Source: a virus
IMG/VR virus record: IMGVR_UViG_3300027747_001183
Direction: 5' to 3' (one strand)
DNA length: 64,000 nt
The notes under the pieces were generated by a model. It had not been told where the DNA came from. It did not search any database and saw only the letters and a program-made list of their open reading frames with translations. The position numbers and the translations under genes were made by a program. Position 1 is the stretch's first letter, and each line of letters begins with the position of its first letter. Below, piece by piece: positions 6,383 through 56,557 of this stretch.

Positions 6383-6550
6383 TTAGACTACAATATAGTA
6401 CTTCTTTGCTTCTTTGTCAACTAGTAAGTGCGCTCTAGGATCGGTGACTTTCTTGTCGTTGATCCGAATGGCACCTGACTCGATCGCGCGTCTAGCCTCT
6501 GACTTAGACTTGCAGAAGCCGACTGCTACGCATATCTCAGCGATTTCCAT
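6383..6550 (-). CDS. Stand-alone S4 RNA-binding domain (TyrRS C-terminal-like), 55 aa
   Basis: Manual translation MEIAEICVAVGFCKSKSEARRAIESGAIRINDKKV; RBS GAGGAG; below ORF-track cutoff. Confidence 0.75.
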   Translation of the reverse strand: MEIAEICVAVGFCKSKSEARRAIESGAIRINDKKVTDPRAHLLVDKEAKKYYIVV

Positions 6551-6552
6551 GA

Positions 6553-7203
6553 CTATCTCCTCATCAACTCGTCTACAAACTCAAGCAAGAGCTTCTGGTT
6601 GTGAGTAGCCCTGTCTTGATCCCAAACCCTACGCATCCAGCTGTACTCTGAGTACCAGTGATACTCGGCTTCTGGATGTGATCCTATGAGCCCGACTCTG
6701 CCCTGAAAAGCAGCCATAGGGTCACCGTTAGGGTAAGTAGCAATAACGTCGAGAGGGCCAGACCCAACAACTGAGCATCCGTCATACCAGAACATCCTCT
6801 CTTTTTTTCCGTTCCAAGTTATCTCTAGATCTTTTGCGTGAGGCCTGCGCGTGTCCGAGTTCGGGCGGGCAAGGTACTGAACGCAGTCTATGTCCTGCAG
6901 AAGGTTCAAGTAGTGCTGACCGGCCCAGTAGGCGCCCATGCATATGCCAAGGTATCGGCCACCTCTATTGACGAAGTCTCGTATCTTTGGAATGTGCTGG
7001 CGCATTACCTTGTGAAAGGTCTCGGCGTCACCAATCCCACCTGGGATCAGTATCATGTCGACGTCGTCGAACCAGTCGTCGAAGTACAAGTCGTGCTTCG
7101 TGAAGACTTTAAACTGGTAGTAGGGCTGCAGGATATTCAACACCGCATTGATGCTCGGTACTGAGCACCTGGGGTGATCGACGAATATCGCTACCTTACC
7201 CAC
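6553..7203 (-). CDS. Class I glutamine amidotransferase-like protein (BPL_N family)
   Basis: IPGGIG, GGRYLGICMGAY nucleophile elbow, SHPE. Confidence 0.8.
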   Translation of the reverse strand: MGKVAIFVDHPRCSVPSINAVLNILQPYYQFKVFTKHDLYFDDWFDDVDMILIPGGIGDAETFHKVMRQHIPKIRDFVNRGGRYLGICMGAYWAGQHYLNLLQDIDCVQYLARPNSDTRRPHAKDLEITWNGKKERMFWYDGCSVVGSGPLDVIATYPNGDPMAAFQGRVGLIGSHPEAEYHWYSEYSWMRRVWDQDRATHNQKLLLEFVDELMRR

Positions 7204-49340: not shown

Positions 49341-50600
49341 TTACTTCTTGACCGTATTAGACAGTGATTTTACGTATGCCTGCATGTCAGGTGCGACATA
49401 TTGTGCAGCTTCTGGCTCCTCTACAGACTCGCTAAGGAGCTGATCCTGGGTCACCTTAACTTCACTCTTGCCTGCAAAATAAGTTTCTTTAATGATATTA
49501 GCCTTCTTGACAAACTCTTCTGCCGAAGAATAGTCCACAGCCTCAATCAGCTTTGTAAACTTCTCTTTCTGAGTATCAGTCATGCCTTCAGACAGCTCAT
49601 CTGCAGCTTCCTTGACTTTCTTCTCAGACACTACCTTAGTAAGCTCGATGTTCTTCTCAGTAGTCTCATTGATCTGGGACTCTAGAGCTTCTACCATTGC
49701 GAGCAGCGACTCGACTACAGATACTTCGTCGTCTGGAATGTCGAGGTGGTGCTCGTTGAAGAGGTTGTATAGACCTGCAAGGAAAGACTCAGTGACTTCA
49801 GTCTTGATGTTCTCTTCTACTGCAAGCTTGTTCTGTTCAATCCACTCAGCTACTGCGTAGTTGAGGTAGCTGTCGATGTTCTCTTCCATCTCTTCCTTGA
49901 TAGAGTCAAGGGCTTCCTGAGCTTCCTCAGCTAGCTCTTCCTCGATCTTAGCTACTTCTAGTGCAACGCGTGTACCGACTGCAGCCTCAAAGATAGTTCC
50001 GATCTTGTCCTTGAACTCTTCCGAAAGGTCCTGTGAGTCGCCGAATACTAGCTCAAGGTCTTCCTTTGCGATCTGCTTCATGGCTTCTGCTGGAGCGCTA
50101 GCTGACTGGATAGATGTCTTGTTCTTGTTAGCGTCACCGTTAGCGTATGAAGTATTGTTGTCGAACACTTCTTCTGGTGAGTGCGTCATTTCTTCTGGAT
50201 TAGCTAGAGTTGCAACGAATGCTGCTAGCTCCATTGGGGCCATCATTGTAGCATACTGAACCATGGTCCTCATGAGGTCAGAGCGCGATACGTTAGTTGG
50301 GTTAGCGTCGATGGTACTGCCGTTCTGAGTCATGGCAACATCTTCCTTAACTTCTTTGAACTCAGAAGCATGCTTTACTAGAGTATGTATAGGATACTTA
50401 CCAAGAGCTCCATGTGTGATTGTCTTATTTGTATTTTTATCAACCATATCAGGCCCATCGAAGTAGACTGTACGGCCTGTTTCCTTACGAATGATCTTAC
50501 CAGCATGTATCTGCTGATCGTGTTGGACCGGGGAGCGCCCGTCATCCACTACATTAGCTTCATCTAGTTCGTTCTGGACGTTTAGATTTTCGTTAGACAT
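49341..50600 (-). CDS. gp22: Prohead core scaffold protein with extended N-terminus
   Basis: LSEEFK.K..TIFEAAV, YL.Y...EW...N..A, F...L..LF.EH; late promoter at 50630-50637. Confidence 0.9.
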   Translation of the reverse strand: MSNENLNVQNELDEANVVDDGRSPVQHDQQIHAGKIIRKETGRTVYFDGPDMVDKNTNKTITHGALGKYPIHTLVKHASEFKEVKEDVAMTQNGSTIDANPTNVSRSDLMRTMVQYATMMAPMELAAFVATLANPEEMTHSPEEVFDNNTSYANGDANKNKTSIQSASAPAEAMKQIAKEDLELVFGDSQDLSEEFKDKIGTIFEAAVGTRVALEVAKIEEELAEEAQEALDSIKEEMEENIDSYLNYAVAEWIEQNKLAVEENIKTEVTESFLAGLYNLFNEHHLDIPDDEVSVVESLLAMVEALESQINETTEKNIELTKVVSEKKVKEAADELSEGMTDTQKEKFTKLIEAVDYSSAEEFVKKANIIKETYFAGKSEVKVTQDQLLSESVEEPEAAQYVAPDMQAYVKSLSNTVKK

Positions 50601-50641: not shown

Positions 50642-51301
50642 TTAGAGATTTGAAACGAAGTGCTTGAATACTCTCAGTTTAGCCTCTTCTAGCTCAGTCT
50701 TAGTGACCTTGCGAGCGGCTTCCTCGATATGAGCCTTCGCCTTCTCGAGTTCTTGGGCCTTGAGAACTCCATTGTCCCATACCCACTCGACTCCCTCCAT
50801 GATGCCGTTTACGAATGCATTCGGTGCAGACGGGTCTGCTACGATGTCGCCGGCAGTGGCTAGGTAGAAGTCGTCCTGTACTACGTGAACGCCGTTGACT
50901 TCTTTTAGCGAGCCCATTCCACGGGTAGATACTCCGAGCTGTACTCCAGACTCGATCAAGTTTCGTGCAATCTCGCCCATTGGTGTAGGTAGGATCATTG
51001 CCTTGCCGATGAAGTTGTTACCTTCTGGAACTAGAGAAACGATCTTATGAGAGATGCGGTCTAGGTTAAGTGAAGGACCTTCTGGGTGGCCGAGCTCTCC
51101 AAGAGCGCGACCCTTGTTCACGTAGTCTTCAACGTATCTGTTGACTTCGCGAGTAACGGACTCAAGACGATACATGCGCCCGTTGCGGTTCTTTACTTCC
51201 GTCTGGATAAACGGTCCATGGATATAGAGGTTCTTCTTTCCCTCTACACCCTCTTCGGTGATTACCTTAAGTTCTTCGTTTAGTTCTGTGATGAGTTTCA
51301 T
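50642..51301 (-). CDS. gp21: Prohead protease
   Basis: NRNGR.Y, ALGELGHP, LGVSTRGMGS, DIVADPSAP.AFV.GI.E. Confidence 0.96.
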   Translation of the reverse strand: MKLITELNEELKVITEEGVEGKKNLYIHGPFIQTEVKNRNGRMYRLESVTREVNRYVEDYVNKGRALGELGHPEGPSLNLDRISHKIVSLVPEGNNFIGKAMILPTPMGEIARNLIESGVQLGVSTRGMGSLKEVNGVHVVQDDFYLATAGDIVADPSAPNAFVNGIMEGVEWVWDNGVLKAQELEKAKAHIEEAARKVTKTELEEAKLRVFKHFVSNL

Positions 51302-51313
51302 CTTAGTTGTTCC

Positions 51314-51592
51314 TTAATTTTTATAAGCAACTGGTGTAGCTGCCAAAGAAACACCTGAATGGTTTGACGTTATAATATCTGTTTTACCTTTTTCTACGAT
51401 AAAACTTTCTCCACCTACAATAGACACACTCCACAAGATTGTTGTGTTAGTTGAGTCTTTGCATGTAATTACAGCTAAAGTTGTTATTGCACCTGCATGT
51501 GACATCAATACTAAAGAACTATTACCATAAGAACTAAAAGTTGAAGTATTACAACTTGATGTATTGCCAGTTGGTTTAATTATAGCAGCCAT
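51314..51592 (-). CDS. Small hypothetical structural-region protein
   Basis: Ser/Thr-rich, AT-rich ORF upstream of gp21. Confidence 0.6.
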   Translation of the reverse strand: MAAIIKPTGNTSSCNTSTFSSYGNSSLVLMSHAGAITTLAVITCKDSTNTTILWSVSIVGGESFIVEKGKTDIITSNHSGVSLAATPVAYKN

Positions 51593-54500
51593 TAGATTCC
51601 ATGCTCCTCTGCAAATGCTAGAAGAGTGTCGATGCCGTCTTGTGAACCAAGCATGTCATCGAACTTAACCCTGTTCTCTTCTGAGAGCGTATCATATAGA
51701 CGCTCTAGTACTTCTTCTGCCATCTTCTTCTTCTTTGACCTAAGAAGCTTAAAGTCTATCTTGGTAAGCTTCTCGTCACGGTTCATGTCTAGGTTCTTCT
51801 GTCCACCAACTAATTCTTCTACCTTGATCTCTCTCTTTGCTGCCCTAACGAACTTAGGGCGACCATTCGGGAAGACTCTGATAATCATGGGACCCCTTGC
51901 AGAATCCTTTGTAGTTACGTCAGTGTCTTCATTTCTTATAGATCTCTTAGTCATAGATCCGAGAGATACCCTTGGCTTCTTTTCTACTGCAGGGGGCTTG
52001 CCGTGCTTCACTACGTGCATGAAGTGTTCGTGCGAGTGAGCCAGGGCATTCTGTACTTCTTCTTTCTTACCCATAGCTACCGTAGTATTTGCATGTATCT
52101 CAAGGGCTTTTGCTACGTGCTTTGGATCTACGAGGTGCTTCTCGCCGTTCTCAAAAGTAAGCTTGTGCATACCGTTGACTGGAGCCTTGTGCATCTGGTT
52201 GATGATGTTGTTATTTGCTGCGCGTTCTACGCGATCTGACTCTTCTTCGTCGTCGCCCTTCTTCTCTACTACGTAGTCTTCACCCATGCGGTTCATGAAG
52301 TTGCCGTAGCTGGAAGCCATCTTACCAGACTGGCTGTAAGATGGAGCTGAGTCAGAAGTCTTATCTTTATCGCCATAGACCATATAGTCATGGACTCCAG
52401 AGATCATCTCCTTGGCAGAAGCGATCTTTGACTGTACCCATGGCTCGATGTGCATGCTCTGAGACATATTGTTCATCATGTCTTCAGCTTTAGCGCATAT
52501 AGCCTTGAGCTCAGTGCGCACCATCGACACCTCATCAGAGACGTAGTCGTTGTCTTCATATGCCTCGTTGCGCTGCTTTGAATAGTAGGCAGCCATCGCC
52601 TGCTTCATTCGTTCTTTCTTTGACTTGCCTGCTAAATTAGAAGCTTTACTGTGAACAAAGTCTGATATCCAAGTACCAATAGGAGTCTTCTTTGTAAGGA
52701 CTTCATTGACTTGCTCGACTTCTTCATTCTGTTTAGTAGAAGATTCTTTTTTCTGTCTTTCAAGATCTCGAATTTGATCTAGAATAGTGTTCCTCTTATT
52801 ACGAAGTCCTTCTTCTCTAGGACTCATAGTTCTGCTTCCTCTATTTCTGCGAGCTTGTTGTGCGCGTCCATATAGAACATCATGACGATTATATTGGTTT
52901 TGCAAGCTTGCAATCTTCTTGTCGATGTTTTCATTGACTTGCTCGACTTCTTCAGCAACAGATATAGTACCTATATGACGACCAATTGGTTGTTTTTTAT
53001 TACGAATATAATATAAATGAGTATTTTCCTCACCATACTTATTTGTATGACTAATTGTATGACCTGGAATATCAGCTCTAATACGCCCAGGACCATAACG
53101 ATCTCTCATTGCTTTTTTGTGGGCGTCTGGTACTGTTGCTTCATAAAGTTCAACTTCTTCTTTAATTCTTCTTAAAGCACTAGGTTCTACGATTGTTTTT
53201 GTACCACCCATTGTTGTAATACGAGATTGCGTACCTGTTATAAATCCACCAAAGTCTACTTCATGATCACCATTAGGTAAAATTTTTGTTATAATACCTT
53301 TATGGCCATGAGAAGCAGATCCTGGAGCATGGATTTTTACAAGATCACCAACATGGTGTGCTTCATCAATAGTTCCAGTAATGCCTTTTCTAAGAACAGT
53401 ATCTTTTTCTTGTTCGCCTTTAGAAAGAGCATAAAAAGGTGTTCGTTGAAGTTTTTCTCTAGCAGCTTGTTTTTCTGGATTAGGTGCAGGCACTTGATTA
53501 ACTGTTTTACCCCAACCTTTATGAACTTCAGAATCTTGTGCTCTAGAATTACCACCCATTCTTTTAGATGTAAGAGCAGCATGAGCGCTATTAAAATTCG
53601 CCACAGAACCAAACCCTTGCTTTCTTCTATTACCAGCGATAGGTGACACACCACCTTTAGTAGTACCATAGTGATATTTTGTATTTAATGCTTCATCACC
53701 TCGAGTCGCTGCACGTGCAGTTCTTACATTTTGTACTCCAGGACTTACAGGACGAAATGTTCCTTTTTTACCCATTTCATTGACTTGCTCGACTTCTTCA
53801 TTCTTCATAGGTTTTCTAGAATAAACGTCAACGCGTGCGCTGTGCTCAGGCTTGATGTCTTGAGATGTCATCCTATAGTGTTTGCCGCCCCTCTTATAAA
53901 GGTGCTTGAACTTATCGAGAGGAGTGCGGCCGCGAACCCTGTGTCCGCCGACGGCTTTGCTCTTCATGTCAGCGAGCTTCTCGTCGTAGTCGGGATCGTC
54001 TTTCTTAATAGTGCCGATGTAGGTGTCGGTACGACTCGCTTCGTCGAGCTCAACGTCTTCGTTCTTCATAGCTGCTTTACGGGCTTTTTCATCTCTCATC
54101 ATCTTTACAATGTTTGGTGAACCAAACTCTGGAGCTTTCTTCATTGTGTCAGAATAAAGCTTTGGCTTAGACATAGTTGACTTTGCTTCATCAAGTTCTG
54201 CTTCTTTTTTCATTGAAGTGTAGCCAAGACCAGACCAGTGCTTCTTGTGTACGTGACCGAGAACGAAGTCGCGAGGATCAGTGTCCATCTTGGCAAGATG
54301 GTTCTTTAGACCTTCGAGGTGACCGTGCTCGATATGGTGAGCAGCCTGAAGCATGTCATGCCTATCGATGCCGCCATGCTCGCGCGCATAATTTCTAAGC
54401 TCTTTATGGTCGCCAAGTGAGTGGCTCATGTTTGCTTCGTTGTGAATCTTCTTTAGAGTCTGTGCGAGCTTTAGGCCCCTGTCATATGCCTGTGCAGACT

Positions 54501-54693
54501 GGTCACCTTCGTATGATGCAGTCTTTGGATCTTCCCTGCGCTTGTTGCCGTTGAATACGTGCTCTTGATCAGTAACGCCTGGAACTAAGTTCTTGTGATC
54601 GACCGAGTGAAGAGCCTTGAAGTTCTTCTCACCCTGTGATAGAGGCTGCTGAGTCTCTTTGAGAGACTTCTTTAAGAGGTCATACATTTTCAT
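51592..54693 (-). CDS. Large modular prohead core/internal protein (~1030 aa)
   Basis: Located in gp67/68 slot; repeated EEVEQVNE/EDVELDEA/EEVELYEA linkers between basic His-rich modules; likely start MKMYD (54693). Confidence 0.75.
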   Translation of the reverse strand: MKMYDLLKKSLKETQQPLSQGEKNFKALHSVDHKNLVPGVTDQEHVFNGNKRREDPKTASYEGDQSAQAYDRGLKLAQTLKKIHNEANMSHSLGDHKELRNYAREHGGIDRHDMLQAAHHIEHGHLEGLKNHLAKMDTDPRDFVLGHVHKKHWSGLGYTSMKKEAELDEAKSTMSKPKLYSDTMKKAPEFGSPNIVKMMRDEKARKAAMKNEDVELDEASRTDTYIGTIKKDDPDYDEKLADMKSKAVGGHRVRGRTPLDKFKHLYKRGGKHYRMTSQDIKPEHSARVDVYSRKPMKNEEVEQVNEMGKKGTFRPVSPGVQNVRTARAATRGDEALNTKYHYGTTKGGVSPIAGNRRKQGFGSVANFNSAHAALTSKRMGGNSRAQDSEVHKGWGKTVNQVPAPNPEKQAAREKLQRTPFYALSKGEQEKDTVLRKGITGTIDEAHHVGDLVKIHAPGSASHGHKGIITKILPNGDHEVDFGGFITGTQSRITTMGGTKTIVEPSALRRIKEEVELYEATVPDAHKKAMRDRYGPGRIRADIPGHTISHTNKYGEENTHLYYIRNKKQPIGRHIGTISVAEEVEQVNENIDKKIASLQNQYNRHDVLYGRAQQARRNRGSRTMSPREEGLRNKRNTILDQIRDLERQKKESSTKQNEEVEQVNEVLTKKTPIGTWISDFVHSKASNLAGKSKKERMKQAMAAYYSKQRNEAYEDNDYVSDEVSMVRTELKAICAKAEDMMNNMSQSMHIEPWVQSKIASAKEMISGVHDYMVYGDKDKTSDSAPSYSQSGKMASSYGNFMNRMGEDYVVEKKGDDEEESDRVERAANNNIINQMHKAPVNGMHKLTFENGEKHLVDPKHVAKALEIHANTTVAMGKKEEVQNALAHSHEHFMHVVKHGKPPAVEKKPRVSLGSMTKRSIRNEDTDVTTKDSARGPMIIRVFPNGRPKFVRAAKREIKVEELVGGQKNLDMNRDEKLTKIDFKLLRSKKKKMAEEVLERLYDTLSEENRVKFDDMLGSQDGIDTLLAFAEEHGI
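52702..53800. repeat. Three identical 25-nt direct repeats TTCATTGACTTGCTCGACTTCTTCA
   Basis: Copies at 52702-52726, 52930-52954 and 53776-53800; encode EEVEQVNE on - strand. Confidence 0.9.
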
Positions 54694-54907
54694 CTGATTG
54701 TTCTTCCTGATCTGTGGTTTCTTGTTCCTCAGAATCGACTGCTTCTTGCTGACCGTCAGTAGCACCAAAGATGCTAGCGGCTACATCAGGAAACATCGCG
54801 TCAACTGCGTCGGCCACCTTAGATGTCATGATATCGTCGATCGCGGTCTTTAGTCCGACTGCGTCCTTGTTGAATGCGCTAGTAAAGATGTCAGCGATAG
54901 TAGTCAT
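54680..54907 (-). CDS. Small acidic prohead core protein (gp67-like)
   Basis: Directly downstream of portal; acidic; TATAAATA at 54932-54939. Confidence 0.6.
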   Translation of the reverse strand: MTTIADIFTSAFNKDAVGLKTAIDDIMTSKVADAVDAMFPDVAASIFGATDGQQEAVDSEEQETTDQEEQSDENV

Positions 54908-54940: not shown

Positions 54941-56557
54941 TTAGTAGGCTTCGCCGGACCCAGACACCTTAGTACCCTGTTCTACGCCTGTAGTCTGGGA
55001 TTGGTTTCCGGTTCCGTCTAGTTCTGGTCTATTTGCGATGGGCGGCGGCGGTGGAGCCATACCTGGGTCCTGAGGAGGAAGCATTGGAACTTTCTCTTCT
55101 GCCATCTCGTCCATCATGTCTGCTATCTCCTGCTCGCTCTGGAACAGGATGTTCTTGCGTACCCACAGGTCTGAATAGTAGCGTCCAATGTAGGGCATGA
55201 CTTGGTTCAGAAGCTGCAGCCTGTTCTGCATGATCTCGATCTCTTTGAACTCTTCAAAGTGGTTGTCCACAGTAAAGTCAAAGTGAATCTGATTCTCTAG
55301 CTCTTTCCAGTCTTCCTCAGAAACTATACCCTTAAGGACTAGCTGCTTCTCGAGGGCTTTTAAGAACAGCATAGAGAACCTGCGACGCAGGCGTCCTACA
55401 AACTTAGTAAACTTTACCTCGTCTCTCGAGATCTCAGACGCCCTGCCGAGGATGTTTGCGGACTCTTGGTTGAGACGGGAAACTGGAACGTTGAGTGCCT
55501 GATAGAGCTTCTTCTGGAAGTACTCTACGTCGGTCATCTCGCCGAGGTTCTGCCCTGCTGGGAGGGTAGTGATCTCGGTGCCCTTGTTGCCTTCCCTTCT
55601 CGGAAGCCAGTAGTCCTCGAGCATCGTCATGTACTTACGATCGTCGCGCACCTCACCCGAAGTGGCGTCGTATACTAGACGGTTCTTGTGGCGGACCATC
55701 ATGTCGCGAAGGTACTGCTCAGCCTTTACCTTAGGTAGATTTCCAACGTCAATATAGAATATGCGACGCTCAGGAGCGCGAGAAATACGATAGATAACCG
55801 TAGCATCTTCGAGCGTCCTTAGCTGGTTTAGCGGCTTGATAGCCTTCTGCACGTACGAGTAGACCAGCTGGTTGTTCTTATCAGTCAGCCCAGAAGTAAC
55901 GTGGATTATTGAGTCGATTGATATTCTTAGACCGCCGGTAGAGTTGTTGTCCTGCGCTATGCCCGCATTTCCGGGTGCTGCCATGAAAGTGCGGTCTGAG
56001 TATACGTAGTACTCACGCTTTACTTTCTGGACTACGATCGGCCCCTTGGCTTCTTTCTTTACTTCGCGTATCTTCCTGACCTTTCTAGGGTCTAGATAGC
56101 GAAGCTCTTGGATTCCAAGGCGTGGATTCTTCTCGTCAATGATGAGGTGATAGTACATACGGCCGTCGACGTACCATCTCTTGAAGAGCTCGTACGCCTC
56201 GATCTGAAAGTTAAAGAGCTTGAGGATAGTCTTGAACTCTTCCCTTATCTTCTGCTTGATAGGGTCGCCGTATTCTACCTTGTCGAGATTAATGTCGATT
56301 ATCTTCTCGGCGTCGGTGTCGATAGCTTCGTTGACGATGTCGTCGATGGCTGCTTCGAGTTCAGGCTGTAGTGAGATCTCTCTGTACTTAGCTACTAGCT
56401 CAGCCTCAGTGCGGGCGGTGCCGTCTAAGTCAATGAAGGTGCCGTAGGATCCACCCGCAGCAACGACGACTGCGCCGTCGTCCTTTATCTCTGGGGCAAA
56501 GGACTCTAACGGAGTCTCGTCTTTTCTCTTGATTTCAAATCCAAATAACTGCATCAC
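54941..56557 (-). CDS. gp20: Portal protein
   Basis: LFGFEI, WYVDGR, IYRISRAPERRIFYIDVGNLP, EDYWLPRREG.KGTEITTLP. Confidence 0.97.
   Translation of the reverse strand: MMQLFGFEIKRKDETPLESFAPEIKDDGAVVVAAGGSYGTFIDLDGTARTEAELVAKYREISLQPELEAAIDDIVNEAIDTDAEKIIDINLDKVEYGDPIKQKIREEFKTILKLFNFQIEAYELFKRWYVDGRMYYHLIIDEKNPRLGIQELRYLDPRKVRKIREVKKEAKGPIVVQKVKREYYVYSDRTFMAAPGNAGIAQDNNSTGGLRISIDSIIHVTSGLTDKNNQLVYSYVQKAIKPLNQLRTLEDATVIYRISRAPERRIFYIDVGNLPKVKAEQYLRDMMVRHKNRLVYDATSGEVRDDRKYMTMLEDYWLPRREGNKGTEITTLPAGQNLGEMTDVEYFQKKLYQALNVPVSRLNQESANILGRASEISRDEVKFTKFVGRLRRRFSMLFLKALEKQLVLKGIVSEEDWKELENQIHFDFTVDNHFEEFKEIEIMQNRLQLLNQVMPYIGRYYSDLWVRKNILFQSEQEIADMMDEMAEEKVPMLPPQDPGMAPPPPPIANRPELDGTGNQSQTTGVEQGTKVSGSGEAY

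Follow-up and report, generated by a model that had tools for sequence, protein, structure and literature searches.

The 64,000-nucleotide (nt) stretch of virus record IMGVR_UViG_3300027747_001183 (IMG/VR), which stems from an uncultured T4-like phage of freshwater and is here called the window, carries between its portal and prohead protease genes an open reading frame (ORF) of 1033 amino acids (aa) that probably encodes a capsid-targeted cargo polyprotein, that is, an array of internal proteins fused into one gene and cut by the prohead protease. Phage T4, with its internal proteins, is the textbook example of a phage that injects proteins along with its DNA. An ORF of ~1030 aa in this position was claimed in a preliminary description of the sequence, and a minus-strand ORF of that size is indeed found there. 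It consists of eight modules, M1 to M8, that follow a short leader and are joined by linkers whose peptide motif recurs throughout a family of relatives (Table 1).

We infer targeting, cleavage, retention and injection of the modules as follows. The 13-residue T4-type leader would bring the 115-kDa precursor into the prohead core, possibly with help from the leader domain and the C-terminal helices, and the gp21-type serine protease would cut after the Glu of each [LIVF]-x-E linker. Cuts would be expected at E13, E169, E218, E306, E444, E518, E588 and E664, and probably at 805/810, so that some ten small proteins, most of them basic, would arise in equal amounts. The released proteins would remain with the DNA and likely be ejected into the host. 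The conserved in-frame linker would double as a homology patch at which relatives gain, lose, swap and reorder modules.

Linkers, leader and prohead protease

Predicted cuts (marked by arrows) fall after residues 169 (AELDE↓A), 218 (EDVELDE↓A), 306, 588 and 664 (EEVEQVNE↓), 444 (TIDE↓A) and 518 (EEVELYE↓A). All linkers named in the preliminary description are present in the ORF, and SLKE↓T after residue 13 was found in addition. The strict motif E[ED][VIA][ED]x0-1[LIVFM]xE occurs five times in the ORF and nowhere else in the six frames of the window, while shuffles of the protein contain it 0.0075 times on average. The 101 distinct homologues together contain 210 copies of the linker EE[VIA]E(x)[LIVF]xE, all of which end hydrophobic-x-Glu, and the residue behind the Glu is in most cases A (58), L (40), V (25), I (17) or G (17). 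In T4 the site of gp21 cleavage lies behind the Glu of L/I-x-E and was first recognised as a Glu-Ala bond in gp22 (PMC9026906). Motifs of this type stand at at least eight joints of the ORF and in the window's gp22-type scaffold, and the scaffolds of relatives show EEEVLDE↓A, EEEVALDE↓A, DVELDE↓A and EEEVENVDE↓A near their N-termini. To this extent the proposed likeness of the linkers to protease sites holds.

The three EEVEQVNE linkers are, as claimed, identical at the DNA level: the 25-nt sequence is exact at 52702, 52930 and 53776, and the identity between the first and last of these copies extends over 29 nt. Given the amino acids, the probability that two further copies would use the same codons is ~2e-6 under the gene's own codon usage.

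The ORF measures 1033 aa from an ATG or 1058 aa from an upstream TTG. The ATG is taken as the start because homologues open MK.YD and because this codon is preceded by an AGGAAG and overlaps with the stop codon of the gene before it. Residues Y4, L7 and E13 of the leader are invariant in the alignment. Internal proteins of T4 bear N-terminal targeting propeptides of 10-19 residues that are removed by the same cutting (PMC9026906), and MKMYDLLKKSLKE↓T resembles these in its length and its L/I-x-E end. It also resembles MKTYQEFIAE↓A (ipII, ipIII) and MKTFKEF (ipI) of T4, as a resemblance only. Lower-GC relatives of the polyprotein open MKTYFTFMKE↓S or MKSFKDFKEEIAE. The presumed processing enzyme is a prohead protease of the gp21/S77 type with 39% identity to T4 gp21.

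Module M4 provides a test case for the linkers. With its profile, 243 representative clusters were retrieved (E <= 1e-3), whose proteins range from 99 to 3554 aa. In polyproteins M4 is preceded by EEVEQVDE↓, and elsewhere it is a separate gene of 136-151 aa that adds nothing but a leader of T4 type (MKTFKEFITE↓A, MKSFQEYLEE↓A or MKTLRDILE↓A). At IMG/VR locus L090, a 138-aa M4 gene opens MKTFSEYLAE↓A, and a small ORF next to it contains MKSFKEYLTE. As either a leader site or a linker precedes M4, the module boundary is interchangeable between the two, and this interchangeability, read from sequence, is the strongest indirect argument that the linkers may be cut. At this locus two leader-tagged small ORFs flank a cytidylyltransferase-like gene (6417-6848, GGFDPVHSGHIEY), which lies downstream of a PhoH-like gene. 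The M4 profile also matches recognised polyvalent proteins, such as P0148 (LPD5, LPD38, ART-PolyVal, LPD1; 1.5e-7) and P0113 (RadC; 1.2e-9); the polyvalent proteins containing M4 are 2560-3554 aa long.

It is quite unlikely that the linkers are not protease sites at all, serving instead as flexible or helical acidic spacers of a protein packaged whole, or being kept mainly as joints for recombination at the DNA level. In favour of this, helix is modelled for some linkers, three are DNA-identical, proteins such as the N4 virion RNA polymerase are packaged without being processed (PMC5512222), and relatives of M4 reside in the very long polyvalent proteins just mentioned. However, all linkers end hydrophobic-x-Glu followed by a small or hydrophobic residue, their motif is common to the scaffold proteins, which are known protease substrates, and before M4 the linker swaps with a leader cleavage site. 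Moreover, most relatives conserve the linker as protein and not as DNA, and so selection acts on the peptide.

Module exchange and a foreign tract

About 50 metagenome proteins of 569-1002 aa match parts of the ORF, P0002 being the closest homologue, and 186 IMG/VR stretches encode relatives. At ~60 of the 80 fetched loci the gene occupies the position between portal and protease, where its length ranges from 124 to 1049 aa. Close relatives all keep the N-terminal part (MKxYDxLKKSLxE↓VQQPLSQGEKNFKALH...) and the C-terminal part from VLTKKTP..DFVHSKNPKFAGKSKKERMKQAMAAYY, and differ in the middle; phages with capsid proteins 90-93% identical to that of the window have versions of 661-1049 aa with wholly different middles. 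The comparison supports the exchangeable cassette array put forward in the preliminary description. The idea does not extend to the whole ORF, as the leader and C-terminal parts are conserved and are not exchangeable cargo.

When the 101 homologues were split at the linker motif, 337 linker-bounded modules were obtained in 126 clusters, 88 of them singletons, with shuffled neighbours. To the right of the leader cluster stand 27 different neighbours, and to the left of the C-terminal cluster 23. The M3 cluster (12 members, 84-89 aa) stands in five left and five right contexts, and another cluster of 20 members in eight left and nine right contexts.

Breakpoints lie at linkers, as the proposal of recombination at these sites had it, except for one in a conserved motif. 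Nucleotides 502-911 of the coding sequence (M2 and M3, between the linkers at 169 and 306) share 91.5% DNA identity with locus L003, while the flanks share 72-78%. In L087 an M6-like module lies upstream of M4, so that the order is altered. The G+C content at third codon positions (GC3) falls exactly at residue 307, at the linker copy at 53776. Contig variants from metagenome runs agree: one in X7 skips 411 nt in frame (52948-53358, aa 446-582, M5 and M6), a contig of 55 nt in X1 runs out of M5 into another EEVE linker, and in a contig of X6 ...MNE↓A and 255 unrelated letters precede M5. These variants are single contigs, not raw reads, and each is weak individually; cover gaps in X5, X6 and X7 are uninformative. 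Ends of BLAST blocks lie within 10 aa of linkers about twofold more often (21% vs 11%), but this crude measure is blurred by homologous linkers and the variable C-terminal part and is not relied on.

Modules M4 to M7 are of foreign origin. The AT-rich, CG-poor character noted for the block 52955-53775 was confirmed (GC 0.374 and 21 CpG/kb, vs 0.47 and 43-55 CpG/kb in the flanks), but the odd tract is longer than that block, reaching over ~52625-53775. M1-M3, M8 and the neighbouring head genes have GC3 values of 0.41-0.62, well above those of M4-M7 (Table 1). Donor-like loci L086 and L087, with GC3 of 0.18-0.28, carry M4 at 77% identity, and the tract is taken to have been acquired recently from a relative of low GC content. 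The two linkers inside it use GTC and GAG, each of which makes up 1/19 of the tract's Val or Glu codons (P ~9e-5 per copy). Because these codons are atypical of the tract, the history of the linkers differs from that of the cassettes they join, which points to separate insertions or gene conversion.

The sharp GC3 contrast within one gene and the three exact repeats could also suggest an assembly artefact in which reads of different phages were joined into a chimera at the 25-nt repeats. Such an origin is extremely improbable. The independent IMG/VR contig L002 matches the ORF over its full length, module order included, at 99.5% identity, a second contig (L085) shares the M3-M4 junction, and Logan contigs from three runs (X1, X6 and X7, one of them from a different study) bridge the repeats, which are shorter than the 31-letter words of those assemblies. 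Misassembly at the repeats, named in the preliminary description as fatal to its proposal, is excluded by these contigs. Most codon differences between strains change the amino acid (7 of 12 in L002, 24 of 33 in L085), which, given small counts, fits relaxed or diversifying selection.

Modules and gene neighbourhood

Table 1. Features of the polyprotein ORF and neighbouring genes. Positions are those of the window, or residues of the ORF where marked aa.
Feature	Position	Strand	Remarks
Portal	54941-56557		Portal_T4, E 3e-173
orf75, gp67-like prohead core protein	54680..54907	minus	phrog_1064, E 5e-4; its own stop overlaps the polyprotein start
Polyprotein ORF, 1033 aa	51592..54693	minus	stop codon 51592-51594; occupies T4 gene 68 slot
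N-terminal leader MKMYDLLKKSLKE↓T, 13 residues	54655..54693	minus	capsid-targeting-like; ends in invariant [LI]-x-E
M1, aa 14-169	54187..54654	minus	conserved leader domain (~14-80) and His-rich module; ends AELDE↓A
M2, aa 170-218	54040..54186	minus	basic, isoelectric point (pI) 9.1; ends EDVELDE↓A
M3, aa 219-306	53776..54039	minus	basic, pI 9.5; ends EEVEQVNE↓
M4, aa 307-444	53362..53775	minus	pI 10.4; GC3 0.11; predicted compact six-helix domain with floppy ends, at most distantly RyR-like
M5, aa 445-518	53140..53361	minus	GC3 0.09; ends EEVELYE↓A; M5-like module in P0068
M6, aa 519-588	52930..53139	minus	GC3 0.14; ends EEVEQVNE↓
M7, aa 589-664	52702..52929	minus	predicted helical hairpin; GC3 0.26; ends EEVEQVNE↓
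M8, aa 665-1033	51595..52701	minus	conserved C-terminal part; M8a with DFVHS..AGKSKKERMKQAMAAYY motif
Degenerate linker NRMGE↓DYVVE↓K in M8	aa 801-810
EF-hand/dockerin-like loop in M8	aa ~969-981
Conserved terminal helices of M8	aa 988-1033
Low-GC3, CpG-poor tract	52625..53775		aa 307 to ~690
Linker repeat TTCATTGACTTGCTCGACTTCTTCA, 25 nt, exact, copy 1	52702..52726
Linker repeat TTCATTGACTTGCTCGACTTCTTCA, 25 nt, exact, copy 2	52930..52954
Linker repeat TTCATTGACTTGCTCGACTTCTTCA, 25 nt, exact, copy 3	53776..53800		left edge of low-GC tract
gp21-type prohead serine protease, presumed processing enzyme	50642..51301	minus	Peptidase_S77 (PF03420) 8e-32; phrog_207 6e-80
gp22-type scaffold	49341..50600	minus	NELDE↓A at residue 14, same ELDE↓A site as linkers

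Searches of Pfam and PHROG with the whole ORF and with each of the eight modules gave no significant match. Of the basic character ascribed to the modules, M2, M3, M4, M6 and M7 bear it (pI 9.1-10.4), but M1 and M5 are near neutral; nor are small modules of 40-145 aa found throughout, as the final 369 aa are not one small module. M7 has an 81% identical counterpart in P0068. In the metagenome proteins P0066 and P0069 an M3-type module is joined directly to an N-terminus that is gp67-like and contains an acidic run; cargo therefore rides on a gp67 homologue in some phages.

In the AlphaFold model of the whole protein the mean predicted local distance difference test score (pLDDT) is 58.9, and it is under 50 for M1b to M6, which in the case of M4 is an alignment artefact; Foldseek with this model returned only helical noise. 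Modelled alone by AlphaFold2 from a clean alignment of 52 rows, M4 is predicted to form six helices (residues 14-133) with disordered ends (pLDDT 92, predicted template modelling score 0.84). M4 itself gives no match to Pfam RyR (PF02026; gathering threshold 27.4 bits), and 15 of the 52 M4 relatives match it below that threshold (best 23.5 bits, 6.9e-5). Comparison of the predicted fold with RyR structure 3nrt_A gave Z 3.9, a root-mean-square deviation of 7.3 and 70 aligned residues at rank 40, which is within noise. The sequence matches suggest a distant relationship between M4 and RyR at most. All Foldseek matches of M4 in the PDB had E > 0.5, and its profile matched no PDB sequence. Lambda Q was considered as a fold match and rejected, since the best VIA-align Z of 5.7 is within noise for helical domains; Atlas scores reached at most 0.80.

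In M8, the M8a motif is what stays constant in this slot, and it is found alone as proteins of 124-200 aa in many phages. Further along (51740-51813, aa 961-985, DMNRDEKLTKIDF) lies a loop to be compared with the EF-hand/dockerin pattern D-x-[DN]-x-[DN]-G-x-I-x-x-x-[DE]. Its Gly is lost, DMNRDEKLTKID having Glu for Gly, while relatives read DANHNGKIDxxDF. Dockerin_1 scored 14.2 bits on M8, under the cut-off, and 79% of one Atlas neighbour cluster is Dockerin_1. A public homologue, CAB5221340.1, is named EF-hand protein on account of a loop of the DANHNGKIDxxDF type.

The 64-kb window holds a head and tail block of T4 type in T4 order, namely large terminase, sheath, tube, portal, the polyprotein ORF, a 92-aa ORF, S77 prohead protease, gp22-type scaffold and gp23-type capsid protein. 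Because the head genes are of T4 type and in T4 order, and orf75 is gp67-like (T4 gp67 matches the same family, phrog_1064, at 2e-30), the polyprotein ORF fills the slot of T4 gene 68. Neither the ORF nor its modules show likeness to T4 gp68 (phrog_1049, phrog_14114), which itself matches phrog_1049 at 2e-71, and BLAST of T4 gp67 and gp68 against the polyprotein family found no match.

By capsid DNA the closest cultured phage is Stenotrophomonas phage DLP6 (79% over 726 nt), and the public runs with a matching stretch are freshwater metagenomes. In DLP6 the same slot is divided into a gp67-like gene (012, which orf75 resembles), an 85-aa homologue of the leader domain, and a gene of 261 aa opening MKTWNQFKSQLPIHE↓A. 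The stand-alone leader-domain homologue in this prohead-core slot, AAY80_013 (gene 013; KU682439.2, locus L001, 13086-13343), matches P0036 at E 1e-5 and is labelled a holin, a label that is probably wrong. Alignment to T4 gp23 (E65↓A66) places the capsid maturation site at SLFE57↓T in the window and at LLGE↓A in DLP6.

Three other features of the window are recorded here. The scaffold has 419 aa vs 269 aa in T4, and the T4_CASP domain spans only 179-412; the extra N-terminal part begins with NELDE↓A and continues with a His/Lys-rich stretch ending EFKEVKE↓D, and may itself hold a cleavable add-on. Between polyprotein and protease, orf92 (51314-51592, minus strand) encodes a Ser/Thr-rich protein, is as foreign in composition as M4-M6 (GC 0.33, GC3 0.16), and has relatives at few loci (L042, 71%; L053, 48%). 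A small ORF at 7966-8334 (minus strand) with no PHROG match has a capsid-targeting start of T4 type from its eighth codon, MKNFLDFINE↓NTTRPKK..., and is a candidate stand-alone internal protein.

Cargo, core and known systems

The ORF could instead encode a structural protein of the core that has grown in size and does the work of gp68 or the scaffold, with modules that act as spacers or DNA-condensing filler and pieces that are expelled or neutralise charge without a role in the host. The slot of gp68 beside a gp67-like gene would suit such a protein, as would the cutting of T4 core proteins into fragments that mostly leave the head, the lack of a recognisable family for most modules, and the constancy of the M8a motif, alone or not, in this slot. 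This explanation is nevertheless rather unlikely. Middles that differ wholly at 90-93% capsid identity, in a gene of 124 to 1049 aa, are hard to square with a size-determining scaffold. M4 is predicted to be folded, and is found both as a separate leader-tagged gene and inside polyvalent proteins. Differences between strains are mostly non-synonymous, and there is no similarity to T4 gp68.

Several observations weigh against the cargo polyprotein that we favour. Three of the linkers, the EEVEQVNE copies, carry Val in the P3 position, for which Leu or Ile is the preference in T4, and this qualifies their likeness to protease sites. Those flanking M7 are modelled by AlphaFold inside long confident helices and not loops. 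In L085 (IMG/VR 3300033061_000297), a 97%-identical strain, E212K, V214A and E218K abolish the M2-M3 linker and fuse the two modules; with the P1 Glu of this site lost, single sites must be dispensable. Linker DNA is not identical within most related genes, only L072 having two identical copies, so the exact identity seen in the window is peculiar to this lineage and not a rule of the family. The foreign tract is bounded by a linker at its left edge (53776) but not at its right, where GC3 rises again at about residue 690, beyond linker 664 and within the conserved motif at the start of M8. Most core fragments exit the heads of T4 and SPN3US (PMC9026906, PMC10052503), and retention is therefore not to be assumed. 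No module matches a known anti-defence or effector family in the Pfam, PHROG and M4 fold searches. Among 50,697 phage records, tblastn found no significant match for the ORF, M8 or the leader, the best (E 0.1) being to cyanophage hypothetical proteins.

The closest known system is that of the T4 internal proteins IPI, IPII, IPIII and Alt (PMC9026906, PMC3012670, PMC12373910), which likewise have an MK-x-Y/F leader ending hydrophobic-x-Glu, a gp21-type protease and small, mostly basic products. In both systems cargo is hypervariable among relatives and the leader alone is conserved, and M4 is elsewhere a classic single gene tagged with a leader. The T4 proteins have only the leader in common among themselves (PMC12373910), and no homology of the cargo to Ip1, Ip2 or Ip3 was found by phage tblastn, PHROG or Pfam. 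Unlike in T4, many cargos here share one frame in the gene 68 slot, with internal sites, a conserved leader domain and a C-terminal part of 369 aa. In other respects the system would operate like that of T4. A phage head polyprotein of such a kind was not described in the full-text literature searched, whose coverage was partial. All three T4 internal proteins (Ip1-3) block restriction enzymes, those of the GmrSD type (PMC12373910), and by analogy the modules may have a role in counter-defence.

Other systems share single aspects. Polyvalent proteins (Iyer et al. 2017, PMC5512222) also join many unrelated domains in one polypeptide predicted to travel with DNA and be cut, and have the M4 domain in common with the ORF. 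However, they bring their own MPTase peptidase and many enzymatic domains, whereas the ORF has neither, matches no Pfam family, and apparently relies on the capsid maturation protease and a repeated short linker. The prohead-protease substrates of phiKZ and SPN3US (PMC10052503, PMC7411985) resemble it in a gp21-related protease, a three-residue motif ending in Glu, the possibility of several cuts per protein and ejection proteins in the head, but there the cuts remove N-terminal propeptides (20-254 aa, mostly leaving the head) and give one mature product per gene, with no strings of interchangeable modules. The T4 prohead core proteins gp67 and gp68 have the same slot, orf75 being gp67-like, and both they and the polyprotein are predicted core substrates or components; the polyprotein differs from gp68 in being seven times longer, with no detectable similarity and a content that varies among close relatives. 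In the PeSL-type mobile cassettes through which modules are shuffled in T4-type genomes (PMC2839356, PMC4122927), variable units are likewise flanked by short conserved sequences as recombination joints, but those are intergenic promoter-terminator elements and not an in-frame coding linker inside one gene.

A broader proposal, tentative and rather doubtful as a whole, is that across a wide clade of uncultured T4-like phages one in-frame peptide serves as both head-protease site and recombination joint. This would permit plug-in loading of changeable injected proteins in fixed one-to-one amounts, here perhaps tuned against defences such as GmrSD-type restriction, with a cargo that includes an RyR-like domain common to polyvalent proteins. 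If relatives fuse many cargos in this manner, capsid cargo would be far more diverse, and would evolve more readily, than one would conclude from internal-protein loci with single genes. If true, the linker motif would be a simple sequence rule to find injected proteins in uncultured phages, and the design of leader plus linkers could be reused for loading several proteins into T4-type heads. M4, in turn, would connect the head cargo of T4-type phages with the polyvalent proteins of other mobile elements.

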